Virus record (IMG/VR): IMGVR_UViG_3300020465_001196
DNA length: 64,000 nt
From: a virus
Lineage: Duplodnaviria; Caudoviricetes
Reading direction: 5' to 3' (one strand)
Part shown: in pieces, positions 3,301-52,700 of the stretch
How positions within the stretch are numbered: position 1 is the first letter of the stretch
Layout of the letters: every line of letters begins with the position of its first letter
Translations under genes and position numbers: made by a program
The notes under the pieces: generated by a model
The model's database searches: none
The model's input: the letters and a program-made list of their open reading frames with translations, nothing else
What the model was told of the DNA's origin: nothing

Positions 3301-6121
3301 CATATGCATTTGTGGCTGTACTTCCTGCTTTGTAATTTCCAGCTCTTGCTCTAACACCAATAATATGTGATGTATTAATAGTTCCAGTGGAATCATCTCT
3401 TACTTCTGCTTGGAAGTGATGACCAACTACACCATTTGCAGTTGTATTTCCACTTGAAGTAAGATTTGTATAACTGTAATCTCCATAAAGTTTTGTAATA
3501 TCATTTACATCATTAGTACCATGTGTAAAGCCACCTAACTTTAATGTTGAATCTGTATGCCAACCTTGTTTCTTATTTGCCGCATCTGTATTAGCTGATA
3601 ATGTTTGTGTATTGTTCCAACCTGTGCTGTAATGTCTTTTTGAATTATCTGACGTTCTAGTAAAGTATGCCGCTAATCCATTAATTCTTGAAGCAAGTGT
3701 TCCTGTAAATCCTGTTGCACTAATACCTTCACCAAGTTGTACATTATTACCACTTGATTTAATTGTGCTTGTTTGTACATCTAAATTACCACCAAGTTGT
3801 GGTGTTGTATCTTGTACTAAACTTGTAAATGTTTCTGATGACAAGTAACCAGCACTTGCGTGGTTACCCCAACCATATGCTGTAATAAATTGTCCTAGGT
3901 TTGTATCTGTTAATACATTCGTACCCATATCAATTGTATTACCATTTGCATCTAGTGTTCCACCTAATTGTGGAGTAGTATCATTAACTACATCTGTAAT
4001 ACCACCTGTACCATTTGCTACCCAAACATAATCTGAACCGTTCCAAGAAAGAACATAACCCGCTGTTGGATTACTTTGATTTAAGTGTGAATCAACTCTT
4101 GCTGTTGTAAAGTATAAATTACTTGAACCTTCTGACATTTCGTCAGTATTGTCTACTGTTAAAATTCGTGCATCAACATAAGCCTTAACTGATTGCTGTG
4201 ATGGAAGTCTAGTAGCACTATTAGTTGCCATATTATCTTCATCAATTAATGCCGCTGTAATACGTGCATCAGCTCTTGCATTTGTAAAGTAAAGATTACT
4301 TGAACCTTCTCCTAAAGCATCTGTATCTGCTGGACCACCTGAGTCATCTGCTACTACCCAAGAAGTACCATTGTATTTTAAAATTTTTCCATTTGCCGCT
4401 CCAGCCGTATTAACATCTGTTAAATTATTCAATGCAACTGAAGTTAAGTAACCTGCACCACTATGGTCTCCCCAACCATATGCTGTGTTCCAGTTTGCTG
4501 AACCTAATGCTGAAACTCTTGTGTTTACTCTAGCATCTGTATAATATAAATTAGAACCTTCTGCTAAATTTGTTGTTGATTTAGTTGCTAATCTATTATC
4601 AAAATCTGTATTAGTATAACCTGCATTAGTAACCCAAGCATAATCTGATCCATTCCAACTTAATACGTAACCTGCTGTTGGATTTGATTGATTTAAATGT
4701 GTGTCTACACTTGCATTAGTATAAGCCGCTGGTAAATTTGTAAGGTTCGAACCATCTACTGCTGGTAGTTTTGCTGAACCATCTAGTTGTACAATTTTGT
4801 TTGCACTTGTACCAACGTCAACGTTTAATGTTGCATCACCTGCCGTTGCACCACCTGTTAAACCTGTACCTGCAACAACTGATGTAATATCACCTGAACC
4901 TGTATTTGATGGAGCCCATCTACTATTACCGTTGTCCCAAGCAAGTACTTGTCCGTTTGTTGGAGCCGCCGTATGTACATTTGATAATGCACTTAATACT
5001 GCGTTTGAAATTCTTGCGTCTGCTCTTGCATTTGTATAATATAAATTTGTACCTTCTGATACATCTGAAGTTGACTTACCTGATAGTCTTGTATCAAATG
5101 TACTATTGAAATCTGCTGTTGCTAATTTTGTTGCAATACTATTTGTTACTGTTGTTGAAAAGTTTGCATCATCACCTAGTGCCGCCGCAAGTTCATTTAA
5201 TGTGTTTAATGTACCTGGTGCCGCATCAACCAATGCATCAACTTTTAATTGTGCTCTTGCATCTGCTCTTGCATCTGTATAGTATAAATTTGTTCCTTCA
5301 GCAACGTCTGTTGTATTTAAAGTATCAAACTCTATTGCGTTTGCACCTGAATTAACTTTTAAATATTTTCCTGCGTCACCTGTAAAGTTTGCTGGAGTAT
5401 CTGATAAACCTACGAAAGTAGATGCACCACCTCCGCCGCCACCACTAATATCTGAACCAACTTCCCATTGTGAAGTTGATGAATTATATTTTAAAACTGA
5501 ATTGTTTACTGCACCTGATGTATCTACATCTCCTATATTATTAAGTGCCGCAATTGATCCTGCCGTAGTTGCAAGACCATAAAATCTGTTTGCATAAATT
5601 GCCGCCCATCTATTTGAGTTATTACCTATTGACCATGTATTGTCTGCTGATGGTAATACAGAAGCATTATTTTTTAATGCAAATCCATCTATTTCTGTTT
5701 TAGAGTAAACTTCTAAATTTGTTCTTGCTGTTGCTAAATTTGTTAAGCCTGATAAATTATTTGATTTTTGTAAAAAGTCTGATGATACTACACCACCTAA
5801 TTTTCCTGCATCAACATTTGCTGAAACTAATTGTAATGTTAAATCATTTGCATTTGATGTTAAACTAATACCACTTGCCGCATTTGCAATTAATGATTTA
5901 AGTTGTATATTATCGCCTGACTTACTTGTAAATAAACCAGATCCTGTACCTATATTTAATGCTGTTGTGTCGTTTGATGCTGTAATTGTTATTTCAGTAG
6001 CAGAGTTTGCCAAAGTGACATTTGTACCCGCTTTGAGAGTTTTAAACTGTAAATCATCACCAACTTTTGAACTAAAAATGATGTGTCCAGTACCTAAATT
6101 TGAACCTGTGTTATCAGCCAT
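341..6121 (-). CDS. Large tail fibre / virion fibre protein with modular internal repeats
   Basis: 1926 aa, rich in G/S/T/A/N/D; repeats EGxxNLY[YF]TxAR x13, DEDNM..SQQSVKAYVD x4, AYGWG[ND]H..AGYL x4, DTTPQLGG x3. Confidence 0.75.
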   Translation of the reverse strand: MADNTGSNLGTGHIIFSSKVGDDLQFKTLKAGTNVTLANSATEITITASNDTTALNIGTGSGLFTSKSGDNIQLKSLIANAASGISLTSNANDLTLQLVSANVDAGKLGGVVSSDFLQKSNNLSGLTNLATARTNLEVYSKTEIDGFALKNNASVLPSADNTWSIGNNSNRWAAIYANRFYGLATTAGSIAALNNIGDVDTSGAVNNSVLKYNSSTSQWEVGSDISGGGGGGASTFVGLSDTPANFTGDAGKYLKVNSGANAIEFDTLNTTDVAEGTNLYYTDARADARAQLKVDALVDAAPGTLNTLNELAAALGDDANFSTTVTNSIATKLATADFNSTFDTRLSGKSTSDVSEGTNLYYTNARADARISNAVLSALSNVHTAAPTNGQVLAWDNGNSRWAPSNTGSGDITSVVAGTGLTGGATAGDATLNVDVGTSANKIVQLDGSAKLPAVDGSNLTNLPAAYTNASVDTHLNQSNPTAGYVLSWNGSDYAWVTNAGYTNTDFDNRLATKSTTNLAEGSNLYYTDARVNTRVSALGSANWNTAYGWGDHSGAGYLTSVALNNLTDVNTAGAANGKILKYNGTSWVVADDSGGPADTDALGEGSSNLYFTNARADARITAALIDEDNMATNSATRLPSQQSVKAYVDARILTVDNTDEMSEGSSNLYFTTARVDSHLNQSNPTAGYVLSWNGSDYVWVANGTGGITDVVNDTTPQLGGTLDANGNTIDMGTNVLTDTNLGQFITAYGWGNHASAGYLSSETFTSLVQDTTPQLGGNLDVQTSTIKSSGNNVQLGEGISATGFTGTLASRINGLAAYFTRTSDNSKRHYSTGWNNTQTLSANTDAANKKQGWHTDSTLKLGGFTHGTNDVNDITKLYGDYSYTNLTSSGNTTANGVVGHHFQAEVRDDSTGTINTSHIIGVRARAGNYKAGSTATNAYGLYVDTAKDGSATITNRYSIYAPESSDTAYFAGPVKVGAWTLPIADGTNGQVLKTDGSGNVTWNSDTGHTNTDTLTEGSSNLYFTNARADARADVRIGAANINALANVHTAAPTDGQVLKWDNGNSRWAPANDTDTVYSSFNSDFDTRLAAKDTGDLSEGSNLYYTQARADARVDAGFSAKSTTNLSEGTNLYYTDARADARITNALIDEDNMASNSATKLPSQQSVKAYVDSQILTKDNTDEIAEGSTNLYFTNARADARITNAMVDEDNMASDSNTKVPTQQSVKAYVDSQVASENELSEMNDVTIASVQNNQFLRYNSTSSKWENVTAGTSTAAGSDTYVQFNDGGTIGGDSDFTYNKTTNKITVGSVTTTGASPAISSSGALGISTTASNSNITITPHGTGDVVIDGQKWPQADGSANQYLKTDGAGQLSWDSLTTDDVSEGANLYYTNARADARADIRFDVKLAAADTGDLSEGSNLYYTDARADARITNALIDEDNMASNSATKLPSQQSVKAYVDAQILTKDNTDEMTEGSSNLYFTNARAISAVQGTNIDMGSNNITTTGKVLFANMYATEGALPNATTYHGMFAHVHGTGAGYFAHGGNWIKLANNSQLANSSNWDTAYGWGNHASAGYLSSETFTSLVQDTTPQLGGTLDANSNTIDMGSNVITDAKVGQWDTAYGWGNHASAGYLTSVPAQSFASLTGKPTTIAGYGITNLNASIDAHLNQSGPTSGYVLSWNGSDYAWVAQSGGGASAINNLTDVTISGASNGQVLKYNGSAWVNAADSGGPADTDALSEGSSNLYFTNARADARIGAADLADLSNVHTAAATDGQVLTWDNSNTRWAPATPSGGSGSTVVERFKINYATNGQLSTITDKTSGISSVSIDSASGGDITINTTGYSYPPANIIYYGYQYASNKYNVTNMNKDVTLREVPGGGSSGSPTAFGSFASVKVKASENDTGAGRSFGTVTHAWVQLVMGG

Positions 6122-10101: not shown

Positions 10102-10797
10102 TTATGTTTCTATCTCATCACCACAATCTACATAAAAACTTGAGCTTTTGCCTGTTGAGTCTTCTTGTAGATAATAATCTGTACCATCATATATAAAATC
10201 ACTAAACACTTTAAATCCATCAAAGTTTTCATATGTGATTTCTAATTTTTTAAAATCAAAACCATCTGGACCTGTTTTAATTGATTCTTCTGCTGTCCAA
10301 CCACCTTTATTAAAATATTGTCCAAACATAAAATACTTGTCTTTACAACTATCTGATCCTGTGTGATGTTCTGCTCCACAAGTAATTTTTGCTCCACGTT
10401 TTACAAATTCTGACATATCCACAGTTTCATCTTCAACATAGTTTCCATTTTCATCTTCAAGTGCATTACCATTTTTATCAACTTCAGATATTATAATGTA
10501 CTGTGAGTCAGCATATTCAGGTCCGTTCATATGACCTATATCTTCAAACTCATAAAATTCTCTTTCAAACTGTGCTTCTTTAGGAATATCTTTATTTGCA
10601 TCTTCCATATCAAAACCTAAGTTTGACATATATTCTTCAAAATTTTCGTTATCATACCAATAATCAAATTGTTCTTTAGTTATTGATCCCATAGCAACCT
10701 CGGCTCCATATCTACCAAAGTCTATTTTAAAAAAACGTTCTGGTGTTTTAATTTTTTTAATCAATTTCTTTTGTTGTGCTATTGTTGGTGCTGACAT
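10102..10797 (-). CDS. Acidic hypothetical protein
   Basis: 231-aa ORF. Confidence 0.6.
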   Translation of the reverse strand: MSAPTIAQQKKLIKKIKTPERFFKIDFGRYGAEVAMGSITKEQFDYWYDNENFEEYMSNLGFDMEDANKDIPKEAQFEREFYEFEDIGHMNGPEYADSQYIIISEVDKNGNALEDENGNYVEDETVDMSEFVKRGAKITCGAEHHTGSDSCKDKYFMFGQYFNKGGWTAEESIKTGPDGFDFKKLEITYENFDGFKVFSDFIYDGTDYYLQEDSTGKSSSFYVDCGDEIET

Positions 10798-11018
10798 TAT
10801 TCCTCCTTTAGTACAAACGATAGTTTTGTTGATCTAATTATTACTTGTTTTCCAGTTTCAATATTTGTATATGAAATACCATTTGGTTTTAAATCTCTAA
10901 ACTCTTTAACACGAACTTGAACTTTTTCTCCTTCAAGCCAATAAGTTAAATCTGCTGGTGCTCCAACAAACAAATACCATATATTAAGAAAAAATTGTTT
11001 CATGCACTTGTTTTCCAT
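10797..11018 (-). CDS. Hypothetical protein
   Basis: 73-aa ORF coupled to its neighbours. Confidence 0.5.
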   Translation of the reverse strand: MENKCMKQFFLNIWYLFVGAPADLTYWLEGEKVQVRVKEFRDLKPNGISYTNIETGKQVIIRSTKLSFVLKEE

Positions 11019-50723: not shown

Positions 50724-51932
50724 TTATTTGCTAAACCTGTCTTTAATTTCTTTTAAACAAGTTAGAAAATAATCAACTTCTTTTTTTGTACTATATACAC
50801 CTGTTGATATTCTACAACTACCACTCCATCCTATTTGTCTGTGTAGCATTTGTGTACAATGATGTCCTGGGCGAGTTGCAATCCCATAAGCATCTAAAAA
50901 CATTGCCATATCTTGATGATGTACTCCATCAAGGTTAAATGAAATAACAGCACTACGTTCTTTTGTGCCAATAAATTTTACTCCATCTATTTGCGACATT
51001 TTTTCATAAGCATAATCTATTACTTCTTCTTCATGCTTAATCATTTCTTCAAATCCTGTGTCAACATAAAAGTTTAATGCTTCATGTAGCCCAACAATTT
51101 CTGTTACTGCTAATGTGCCAGCTTCCCATTTCTTAGAACCTTCTGCAAAGTCAACATTATCATGATCTACTGTTGCAACTGTTCCACCACCGCCTAGTGC
51201 AGGATCTAAATTATCAATCCATTTACGTTTTGCATACATAACACCAATACCACTTGGACCATACATCTTATGTCCACTCATTGCATAAAAGTCACAATCT
51301 AAATTTTGCATATCAACTTTAATGTGTGGTGCACCTTGTGTACCATCTACTGCAACTACAATGTTATGTTTTTTAGCAATTTCACAAACACGTTTAATGT
51401 CTATTACTTGCCCTGATGTATTAGATACATGAGTAATTGCAATAATTTTCGTACGATCAGTAATTAATGATTCTATTTCTTCAATATCGATTTGATGTTG
51501 CTCATTAACTTTTAAAAACTTTATAACTGCACCATTAAACTTACGTTGTAAATGCCATGGTATATAATTCGAATGATGTTCTATTTCTGTTGTAATAATT
51601 TCATAGCCTGGTTGCATTGTTCTACCAAATGCTGTTGCAACCATATTAATTGCTTCTGTGGCTGATTTTGTAAACACTATTTCATCTGGTTCATTTGCAT
51701 TAATAAAATCTGCAACTGCTTGTCTACTTTTTTCTACCAATGCCGTTGCATGATTTGATAATTCGTGTATGCTTCTTCCAATACTTGAATATTCTTCTGT
51801 CATAAACTTATTCATTCTATCAATTACACATTGTGGTTTTTGTGAAGAATTAGCACTATCAAAGTATACCAATGGCTTACCGCTGGGTAGCATTTTGTTT
51901 AGTATCGGAAAATGTTTTCTTATATGTTCCAT
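50724..51932 (-). CDS. sufS: SufS/CsdA-type cysteine desulfurase
   Basis: YFDSANSSQKP, EIEHHSN..PW, SGHKMYGPSGIG, RPGHHCTQ. Confidence 0.95.
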   Translation of the reverse strand: MEHIRKHFPILNKMLPSGKPLVYFDSANSSQKPQCVIDRMNKFMTEEYSSIGRSIHELSNHATALVEKSRQAVADFINANEPDEIVFTKSATEAINMVATAFGRTMQPGYEIITTEIEHHSNYIPWHLQRKFNGAVIKFLKVNEQHQIDIEEIESLITDRTKIIAITHVSNTSGQVIDIKRVCEIAKKHNIVVAVDGTQGAPHIKVDMQNLDCDFYAMSGHKMYGPSGIGVMYAKRKWIDNLDPALGGGGTVATVDHDNVDFAEGSKKWEAGTLAVTEIVGLHEALNFYVDTGFEEMIKHEEEVIDYAYEKMSQIDGVKFIGTKERSAVISFNLDGVHHQDMAMFLDAYGIATRPGHHCTQMLHRQIGWSGSCRISTGVYSTKKEVDYFLTCLKEIKDRFSK

Positions 51933-51980
51933 TGTTATTATATTTACGTCAATTTAATTGTGAATAACTTATAGTTAATT

Positions 51981-52056
51981 TGGTGGAGGATAGCGGGATC
52001 GAACCGCTGACCTCCTGAATGCAAATCAGGCGCTCTCCCAGCTGAGCTAATCCCCC
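51981..52056 (-). tRNA. trnA: tRNA-Ala(TGC)
   Basis: G3:U70 identity pair, CCTGA-TTTGCAT-TCAGG anticodon arm, TTCGATC, ends ACCA; 76 nt. Confidence 0.96.
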
Positions 52057-52060
52057 ACAG

Positions 52061-52216
52061 TTAGCATAACTCATAAGCAGGATTCTGTTCATTGCTATCA
52101 TTTACCTTTGCGTCCTACCCTGTGTCCCGGCAGTTGTTGACACTCTACTTGGACTTGCACATATCTGCCTGTGTCCTGACTTTCCTCTGTTTCCAGCGAT
52201 AGCCCGGTTATGCTAA
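52061..52216 (-). ncRNA. rnpB: Miniature RNase P RNA (156 nt)
   Basis: GAGGAAAGUCAGGA and AACAGAAUCCUGCUUA form P4; P1 UUAGCAUAAC/GUUAUGCUAA; P2 GCUAUC/GAUAGC; P3 CUG-GAAA-CAG; GGCAG/CUGCC helix; GGUAGG in the P15 region. Confidence 0.9.
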
Positions 52217-52223
52217 TGTATTT

Positions 52224-52252
52224 ACTATAATACATTTCTATAATTTTGTCAA
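52224..52252 (-). promoter_or_regulatory. Sigma70-type promoter of the RNase P RNA-tRNA-Ala unit
   Basis: TTGACA-N17-TATAGT; predicted +1 at A52217, adjacent to P1; overlapping TAAATA at 52219-52224. Confidence 0.85.
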
Positions 52253-52255
52253 TTG

Positions 52256-52471
52256 TTATTTGCTGTGTGGCGGAAGTTTCTTTTCAACCCACCAAATGTG
52301 TTTACGTGTAATTGGATCATATTTTCTAACTCTCAATTTATCGTTTTTCTTTTCGCCTTTGGTTGGTTTTTTAGCATAATAATAATATGCATGATCTTTC
52401 ATTTTAGAATCTTCTGGTACTAATCTAACTTTTAAATATGGTTTTTTTGTTTTAGTTTTATTTTTTGCCAT
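52256..52471 (-). CDS. rpmG: Ribosomal protein bL33 (Cys-free type)
   Basis: KVRLVP..YYY.KK....KLR.RKYDPI.RKH..W.EKK. Confidence 0.85.
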   Translation of the reverse strand: MAKNKTKTKKPYLKVRLVPEDSKMKDHAYYYYAKKPTKGEKKNDKLRVRKYDPITRKHIWWVEKKLPPHSK

Positions 52472-52700
52472 TTGGTTTGTTTTTATCAGAAATCAGCTTA
52501 TCTAATTTCTTTTCAACTCGCTTGTTTAGTTTATGAACTTCTTTATTTAATTCTTCTAAATGAGCAATGTGCTTTTGAAAATCTTGTAAACTAATAGTAT
52601 GTAATAATAATTTTTCTTCTAGTTCTTTTTGTGTGATTAATTTTTTAAGATACTTTGGGTGTCTTAATAAATCTATTACGTTACTCTTTGTTTTGCTCAT
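52458..52700 (-). CDS. Basic coiled-coil hypothetical protein
   Basis: 80-aa ORF; no RnpA RNR motif. Confidence 0.45.
   Translation of the reverse strand: MSKTKSNVIDLLRHPKYLKKLITQKELEEKLLLHTISLQDFQKHIAHLEELNKEVHKLNKRVEKKLDKLISDKNKPNGKK

Follow-up and report, generated by a model that had tools for sequence, protein, structure and literature searches.

The window analysed here, a 64,000-nucleotide stretch of DNA from IMG/VR record IMGVR_UViG_3300020465_001196, carries on its minus strand a miniature RNase P RNA (P RNA), 52217-52061, whose bacterial type A descent is clear from alignment and whose fold is supported by covariation, and a tRNA-Ala gene that begins 4 nt after the closing helix of that RNA. 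We consider it probable that the two are transcribed as one unit, the tRNA acting as the 3'-end-forming signal of the ribozyme gene, with the cut between them most likely made in trans. The arrangement of P RNA and tRNA recurs in related phages far beyond chance. From upstream to downstream, the locus contains the following elements:

52256-52471, minus strand: gene for ribosomal protein bL33, directly upstream of the unit (Pfam PF00471, E 5.4e-08)
52224-52252, minus strand: sigma70-type promoter (TTGACA at 52252-52247, a 17-nt spacer, TATAGT at 52229-52224)
52061-52217, minus strand: miniature RNase P RNA, catalytic domain only, 157 nt (RF00010, 71 bits; model R1, 188.7 bits; covariation)
52057-52060, minus strand: spacer CUGU, separating P1 from tRNA position +1 by 4 nt, with U at -1
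51981-52056, minus strand: tRNA-Ala(UGC) (ARAGORN; Rfam tRNA, 65.9 bits)
51937-51964, minus strand: second promoter-like site, made up of TTCACA, 16 nt and TATAAT, immediately behind tRNA-Ala and ahead of sufS
50724-51932, minus strand: gene for a SufS-like cysteine desulfurase, directly downstream (Pfam PF00266, E 6e-130)

In our promoter scan of the locus, the TTGACA/17 nt/TATAGT promoter matches 11 of the 12 consensus positions. Its -10 hexamer ends 7 nt before P1, and transcription is predicted to start at about 52217, roughly 1 nt before P1 or at the first P1 base. The bL33 gene, which is syntenic in the clade of relatives that share tRNA-Ala, has its stop codon 3 nt ahead of the -35 element, while tRNA-Ala(UGC) itself has the G3:U70 pair, the discriminator A73 and an encoded CCA. 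The site scan found no terminator-like site in 51600-52600, and the scan of the locus found no further promoter between the P RNA promoter and tRNA-Ala. These results bear out the preliminary description in its order of promoter, P RNA, CUGU and tRNA-Ala with no terminator in between, and the coordinates it gave for P RNA, spacer and tRNA-Ala all proved correct when compared with ARAGORN, Rfam and the RF00010 alignment. A separate tRNA-Ala promoter within the P RNA was considered as a candidate and rejected, none being seen at the scan threshold.

The bacterial type A model (RF00010) aligns end to end, model positions 1-367, with 52058-52215 on the minus strand, scoring 71 bits (E 1.9e-21) in a permissive scan of 801 nt. 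This is below the Rfam gathering score of 100 for RF00010 because 8 nt stand in for the specificity domain (S-domain; 158 model positions) and P18 is lacking, and at gathering thresholds Rfam reports only tRNAs in the window. The parts of the RNA were assigned as follows:

52216-52207 with 52070-52061, minus strand: P1, 10 bp
52203-52198 with 52099-52094, minus strand: P2, 6 bp
52196-52187, minus strand: P3, 3 bp with a GAAA loop
52187-52175, minus strand: CR-I with the P4 5' strand
52173-52170 with 52161-52158, minus strand: P5
52129-52169, minus strand: P6 pseudoknot, GGCAG (52169-52165), right after P5, with CUGCC (52133-52129) in the P16 loop
52162-52164, minus strand: AUA in place of the specificity domain (P7-P14, CR-II/III), from the alignments
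52154-52151 with 52115-52112, minus strand: P15
52143-52139 with 52126-52122, minus strand: P16
52116-52120, minus strand: GGGUA of the L15 internal loop, which holds GGU, the same in all 28 distinct sequences of the family
52109-52100, minus strand: CR-IV
52089-52074, minus strand: CR-V with the P4 3' strand

The following features of a type A catalytic domain are present: CR-I, CR-IV and CR-V, P1-P3, P5, P15/P16, P6, the GGU of L15, and a P4 pseudoknot (AAG-U-CAGG with CCUGCUU) that has its bulged U at 52179. The specificity domain is absent: AUA alone separates the 5' strand of P6 from the 3' strand of P5. The GGU of L15 pairs, in type A RNase P, with the tRNA 3' RCCA, the RCCA-RPR interaction (PMC11143913). 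When the 28 distinct homologous sequences are aligned, standard pairs make up 93.8% of the cells, against 30-39% when the partners are slid by 1-3 columns, and 23 pairs have compensatory changes on both sides, a result equalled in none of 500 shuffles. All seven P4 pairs are invariant in the 28 sequences, and P6 has changed in compensatory fashion among the relatives (GGUAG/CUACC, GGUGG/CCACC and GUUGAG/CUCAAC). CR-I, CR-IV and CR-V are conserved, and J5/15, a core element with a GCAAG or GCGAG stretch, is invariant or covarying. Judged from these patterns, the catalytic core of the miniature P RNA looks functional, and from this we infer that the RNA is catalytically active.

Relatives were sought with a pattern for short P RNAs (CR-I, a gap of 75-105 nt, CR-V). 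The pattern scan yielded seven true homologues in viral contigs, and the scan followed by filtering of the other hits with R1, a covariance model built in this analysis, yielded 34 strong homologues in metagenomes, nearly all of them marine. These 41 further members bring the family to 42 loci with 28 distinct P RNA sequences. Chance matches account for 39 of the 75 metagenome loci and 24 of the 25 cellular-genome loci returned by the pattern, as well as for the match at L003/L045, within coding sequence. Only one weak, different match came from the 185,579 species-representative cellular genomes. A distant blastn search of GenBank phages with 401 nt matched only the tRNA-Ala part, so that no cultured phage in that GenBank collection carries the P RNA.

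From its gene content, we take the source organism to be a large marine phage. Proteins encoded in the window include a 1926-aa structural or tail-fibre-like protein, a phrog_262 DNA polymerase and a Clp-like ATPase, along with the products of host-like genes (L33, SufS, porin, UvdE and leucyl aminopeptidase). Three other tRNAs (Thr, Gly and Trp) are present in the window, unlinked to any P RNA. The nearest record (G001), also viral, is a 32-kb fragment without the P RNA element. Relatives occur on IMG/VR contigs of up to 328 kb, and the P RNA is single-copy in the 328-kb relative (G002), a genome with terminal repeats and an estimated completeness of 100%. No RnpA (PF00825) was detectable in that complete genome or in two partial ones (G003 and G004).

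A tRNA directly follows the P RNA at 41 of the 42 loci (27 of the 28 distinct P RNA sequences). It begins 10-23 nt past CR-V and thus 3-7 nt past P1. The partner tRNA is complete at 40 of the 42 loci, that of L042 being cut by the contig end, and CCA is encoded in all 40 complete partners. The sole locus without a tRNA (L010) has a ribosome-binding site and a 70-aa ORF behind its P RNA. The partner differs by clade: tRNA-Ala(UGC) with a spacer of 3-4 nt, tRNA-Gln(UUG) with 4-6 nt, tRNA-Asp(GUC) with 4-5 nt and tRNA-Ser(UGA) with 6-7 nt. Spacers in the Asp clade were aligned by hand (P1 with a 1-nt bulge), as were those of L059 and L072, where P1 is very short. P1 length and spacer length show opposite trends in the two main clades, and by our own estimate the 3-4 nt spacer of the Ala clade would barely span its P1 of 9-11 bp.

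Each partner class forms one group on the maximum-likelihood P RNA tree, which needs a minimum of four label changes, equivalent to about three switches and one loss. The Ala and Asp units differ in their upstream genes, and the Ser and Gln clades have other neighbours. The gene that follows both Ala and Asp units, however, is sufS (61-65% amino-acid identity; L001 and L055 for Asp), which shows that the tRNA was exchanged on the spot and that its adjacency to the P RNA was retained. P RNA heads arrays of 2-7 tRNAs in the Gln clade. Members of the Ala, Asp and Ser clades have just one partner tRNA, and their other tRNAs are scattered. At all 42 loci the P RNA comes first in its unit, and it is never found behind or inside a tRNA array. 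All four tRNA-linked clades have a TTGACA/TATAAT-like promoter whose -10 element ends 5-7 nt before P1. Full-size bacterial rnpB genes, in contrast, are followed by a terminator or other sequence: in a control sample of 33 (30 sampled evenly across Pseudomonadota, plus 3 more), no tRNA on the same strand lies in the first 30 nt downstream, and the nearest one is 148 nt away. The preliminary description had left it to be checked whether the linkage is conserved in related phages, and it is, the adjacency outlasting exchanges of the tRNA itself.

Marine metatranscriptomes were used in the form of assembled contigs, from which presence and continuity across a junction can be read, but not ends or strand. 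In one run (X1), coverage of a 1101-nt stretch is restricted to 51981-52267, and the flanking coding sequence is at zero depth, an internal control that favours stable RNA over DNA carry-over. An exact contig of 127 nt (52052-52178) spans the junction of P RNA, spacer and tRNA, but reaches just 5 nt into the tRNA. A Ser-type relative is represented in a larger run (X21) by a contig that covers 103 nt of P RNA and then 67 nt more, in which the 3' strand of P1 is followed by the spacer and the first part of tRNA-Ser, identical to the tail of L029; about 124 nt of P RNA plus spacer are thus joined to about 46 nt of tRNA-Ser. Such junction-spanning contigs are compatible with a joint transcript, although contigs cannot prove single molecules or exclude DNA. 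Another exact contig (52149-52267) extends 50 nt upstream of the predicted start, through the promoter and into the 3' end of the L33 gene, and a further one (51789-51995) joins the 3' part of tRNA-Ala to sufS despite the second promoter-like site, indicating either read-through transcripts or the presence of some DNA. In X21 the P RNA of the window strain is unassembled while the 5' part of sufS is assembled, so that the argument for stable RNA rather than DNA depends on one run.

A joint P RNA-tRNA precursor is likely, given the one promoter, a 4-nt gap that is too short for a terminator or a second promoter, and the junction-spanning contigs. If there is a joint precursor, RNase P cleavage at tRNA +1 must also create the 3' end of the P RNA, and the proposal of the preliminary description that one cut serves both ends follows from it. 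Lacking a terminator, the unit must have some other signal for forming a 3' end, and the tRNA is the only one it contains. In the scheme that we favour, the strong sigma70-type promoter would initiate at P1 and so set the 5' end of the P RNA, making 5' processing unnecessary. RNase P would then cut at tRNA +1, maturing the 5' end of the tRNA and releasing a P RNA with a tail of 3-7 nt beyond P1. Early in infection the cut would be made in trans by the complete RNase P that the host presumably supplies. Later, phage P RNA that had already been released could possibly take over, presumably in complex with host RnpA, as no phage gene for RnpA was detected in the relatives inspected. The released P RNA, if catalytic, would act on other substrates.

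RNase P is the textbook trans-acting ribozyme. It is conceivable that the miniature ribozyme docks and cleaves its own 3'-attached tRNA, so that each transcript frees its own tRNA and the tether supplies the affinity lost with the S-domain, as the preliminary description had suggested. We regard such a natural cis-acting RNase P as unlikely. The leader-binding cleft of bacterial RnpA contacts the leader at about -4 to -8, and here it would meet a helix, since P1 is reached after just 3-4 single-stranded nt; the short, structured leader may therefore be a poor holoenzyme substrate in trans, which would speak for cleavage in cis. So would the conserved linkage with its short spacers, the CCA encoded by every complete partner tRNA, and the invariant GGU of L15. 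Tethering does have a precedent in an L15-tethered archaeal conjugate, in which deletion of the S-domain costs 12-fold, compared with 25,000-fold in trans (PMC2475606), and guide sequences on the 3' end of M1 RNA direct cleavage (M1GS; PMC11143913). When pre-tRNA was placed on the 3' end of two archaeal RPRs (Afu and Mja), however, there was no cis cleavage (PMC2475606). Helix arithmetic points the same way: the 9-15 bp of P1 add about 2.8 Å each, the junction comes on top, and a spacer of 3-7 nt reaches at most some 7 Å per nucleotide, so that the tether would be marginal or too short in the Ala clade unless P1 frays. The locus without a tRNA (L010) implies that a tRNA is not indispensable for making the P RNA, and the distal tRNAs of the arrays, like the unlinked Thr, Gly and Trp tRNAs of the window, require a trans-acting enzyme anyway. 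A single-turnover role would also leave unexplained why a whole conserved catalytic core stands behind a strong promoter. On these grounds trans cleavage appears more likely than cis, and tethering as a replacement for the S-domain is weakly disfavoured. Were the cis reading true, the phage would make its active RNase P autocatalytically, with no need of the host enzyme, and phage tRNA maturation would continue with host RNase P shut down or limiting.

The adjacency might instead reflect co-expression only, the P RNA heading a stable-RNA operon of tRNAs to share its strong promoter, packed as tightly as is typical of phage tRNA clusters, with 3'-end formation incidental. In phage T4, small stable RNAs share a transcript with the tRNA cluster, and here the tRNAs of the arrays are themselves just 1-20 nt apart and follow the P RNA in groups of 2-7 in the Gln clade. 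Yet the Ala, Asp and Ser clades pair the P RNA with one tRNA rather than a cluster and have their other tRNAs dispersed, no P RNA lies within or after an array, the tRNA has been swapped in front of the same sufS with the adjacency kept, and the need for a 3'-end signal would still have the tRNA as its sole candidate. We doubt this explanation for these reasons. Doubt is stronger still for the possibility that the P-RNA-like element is a decoy or regulator rather than a working ribozyme, for instance one that sequesters host RnpA or forms a structured 5' leader, with the tRNA junction merely releasing or stabilising it. The missing RnpA gene in the three relatives inspected (G002, G003 and G004), the L010 element standing as the 5' leader of a protein gene, the Rfam score under the gathering threshold, and an orthopoxvirus RNase P-like RNA that is inactive in vitro (PMC3001073) could all be read in this way. 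Against it, P4, CR-I/IV/V, J5/15, the GGU of L15 and P6 are invariant or covarying across deep divergence, which is more than protein binding alone should require. RNAs of type A consisting of the C-domain only are active in vitro (PMC5839562), and type T archaeal RNAs with most of the S-domain gone serve as the cell's only RNase P RNA (PMC3579882). We therefore consider the decoy or regulator reading very unlikely.

The phage RNA has in common with type A RNAs (RF00010; E. coli M1 RNA) P1-P6, P15/P16, a GGU-bearing L15, CR-I/IV/V and the bulged U of P4, and several of its stretches are near-identical to the type A consensus. It differs in being phage-encoded, in its size (157 nt versus about 350-400 nt), in lacking P17, P18 and the S-domain, in whose place 3 nt remain, and in having a P3 of only 3 bp. 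Functionally, it appears analogous to the archaeal type T RNAs, which likewise keep the catalytic domain and have lost most of the specificity domain. Those RNAs (PMC3579882) are archaeal and very GC-rich, retain S-domain remnants, work with Pop5, Rpp30 and Rpp29, are the only P RNA of the cell, and are not described as linked to a tRNA in the accessible part of that paper, whereas the phage RNA is, on its alignment, clearly of bacterial type A descent. The requirements of the E. coli C-domain ribozyme Eco CP RPR, which is active and needs a P6-mimic but not P18 (PMC5839562), match what the phage RNA keeps and loses. Eco CP RPR was made in the laboratory by deletion, however, while the phage RNA comes from a conserved gene found in nature and has a genuine P6 that covaries. 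The only other viral case that we found, the orthopoxvirus (camelpox) RNase P-like RNA, is also virus-encoded but belongs to a eukaryotic virus and has only some similarity in secondary structure, with no tRNA linkage described in the accessible part of PMC3001073.

For the co-transcription of P RNA with tRNA, yeast mitochondria provide a natural precedent, tRNA-fMet, RPM1 and tRNA-Pro lying on one primary transcript (PMC3797045; PMC3790967). Like the phage RNA, that of RPM1 is much reduced, and the phage unit would share its co-transcription with tRNAs, one of them downstream; in the yeast system the activity of the enzyme takes part in the processing of its own precursor. RPM1 differs in being organellar, in having tRNAs on both sides, in being cut internally and in needing Rpm2p for maturation, while the unit described here is found in phages, its promoter lying immediately ahead of P1 and a tRNA just 3-7 nt beyond that helix. 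The preliminary description had also likened the unit to engineered pre-tRNA-RNase P RNA conjugates that act in cis (Frank, Harris & Pace 1994, as cited in PMC11143913). The likeness holds for the covalent link, ribozyme and substrate or guide being joined in those conjugates and in M1GS as well, and tethering can offset the loss of the S-domain in the conjugates (PMC2475606). It fails in the topology and is hence superficial: the self-cleaving conjugates carry the tRNA at L15, at the active site (PMC2475606), whereas in the phage unit it is the 3' end of P1 that connects, by way of the 5' leader, to the tRNA. M1GS, for its part, attaches a guide and the phage unit a whole tRNA.

Our search of the full-text literature for a phage or viral RNase P RNA returned only the inactive camelpox RNase P-like RNA, and in the literature searched we found no description of a P RNA-tRNA unit of this kind, which by itself is not proof of novelty. 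The family touches on two long-standing questions, namely how little RNase P is needed for function and how RNase P's own RNA is matured. With P6 kept and both P18 and the S-domain dropped, nature has in effect carried out the deletion experiment known from the Kirsebom and Gopalan laboratories. The 237-nt transcript (52217-51981) would be a ready test system for cis versus trans cleavage and for substrate recognition without an S-domain.

For the phages, RNase P RNA joins the translation-related genes already known from huge phages, and a promoter at +1 with a tRNA at the 3' end would give them a terminator-free route to a defined stable RNA. The unit combines two known kinds of thing, a reduced RNase P RNA and tRNA-punctuated RNA maturation, in a form that is conserved in, and specific to, a marine phage family. 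Here a natural and widespread group of bacterial type A RNAs has been reduced to the catalytic domain, and the substrate of the enzyme probably serves as the 3'-end signal of its gene.

Within the phage mini P RNA family, the sole close member lacking a tRNA is the one at locus L010 (the mini P RNA together with about 230 nt 3' of it).

5329-5498, (-) strand: mini P RNA of L010, 128 bits

A ribosome-binding site, AAAGGAAAAGG, lies directly 3' of P1 in L010 and leads into a 70-aa ORF that starts with ATG; at this locus the mini P RNA would thus serve as an mRNA's 5' leader. Part of what looks like the P1 5' strand is overlapped by the -10 hexamer. For the window itself, an RNA-library contig matches positions 52149-52267 exactly, running from the P RNA interior across the promoter to the 3' end of the bL33 gene, which suggests either transcripts reading through from bL33 or DNA in the library. 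If such read-through is real, some of the P RNA molecules would need 5' processing. In the 328-kb relative (L002/L028), an additional ORF stands between the bL33 gene and the P RNA promoter, and the window has no counterpart of it in that interval.

18-486 nt upstream of the P RNA, L002/L028: additional ORF of about 156 aa

The P3 arm is longer in all members of the Gln clade, and in a single Ser-clade member (L022, 1251-1419) an 8-nt insertion enlarges the P3 loop; P3 is thus the variable arm of the family. The Gln clade also includes a divergent member, L072, in which the tRNA-Gln sequence differs and P1 is only about 4 bp. The P RNA of this locus is followed by an array of seven tRNAs (Gln, Ala, Glu, Asp, Thr, Cys and Gly) separated by gaps of a few nt.

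1442-1610, (-) strand: divergent Gln-clade member L072

In two Ser-clade loci the mini P RNA is preceded, at a distance of about 1.5 kb, by a tmRNA gene (tag ADENLALAA) of the same orientation, and tmRNA, RNase P RNA and tRNAs therefore lie near one another in these phages.

10573-10892: tmRNA gene, L004
2675-2992: tmRNA gene, L006

Two further reduced P-RNA-like sequences, scored with R1, the analysis's own covariance model, are of another kind than the phage family.

826-995, (-) strand: L033, 45 bits
3721-3895, (-) strand: L073, 42 bits

L033, which looks gammaproteobacterial, has P18 and is mostly missing the S-domain and the P5-P15 region, and L073 retains part of the S-domain. Both have T-runs and no tRNA 3' of them. 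The groundwater Elusimicrobia MAG G007 carries a full-size rnpB (155 bits) and, on a separate 20-kb contig, a second, GC-rich P-RNA-like copy without the S-domain (72 bits with RF00010).

Contig C57, 3931-4107, (-) strand: loci L105/L112 of G007
Contig C32, 47236-47672: locus L110 of G007

A hairpin and T-run lie 3' of the reduced copy, and 68 nt further on are two tRNA-Gly genes. This copy may be an independent instance of an additional miniature P RNA, and its contig is possibly a phage contig within the bin.

The phage tRNA-Ala (window 51979-52057) is identical over its full length to tRNA-Ala sequences in several marine metatranscriptomes (X12, X20), where the flanks are different. This pattern fits a recent acquisition of the tRNA-Ala from the host, and it might aid identification of that host.
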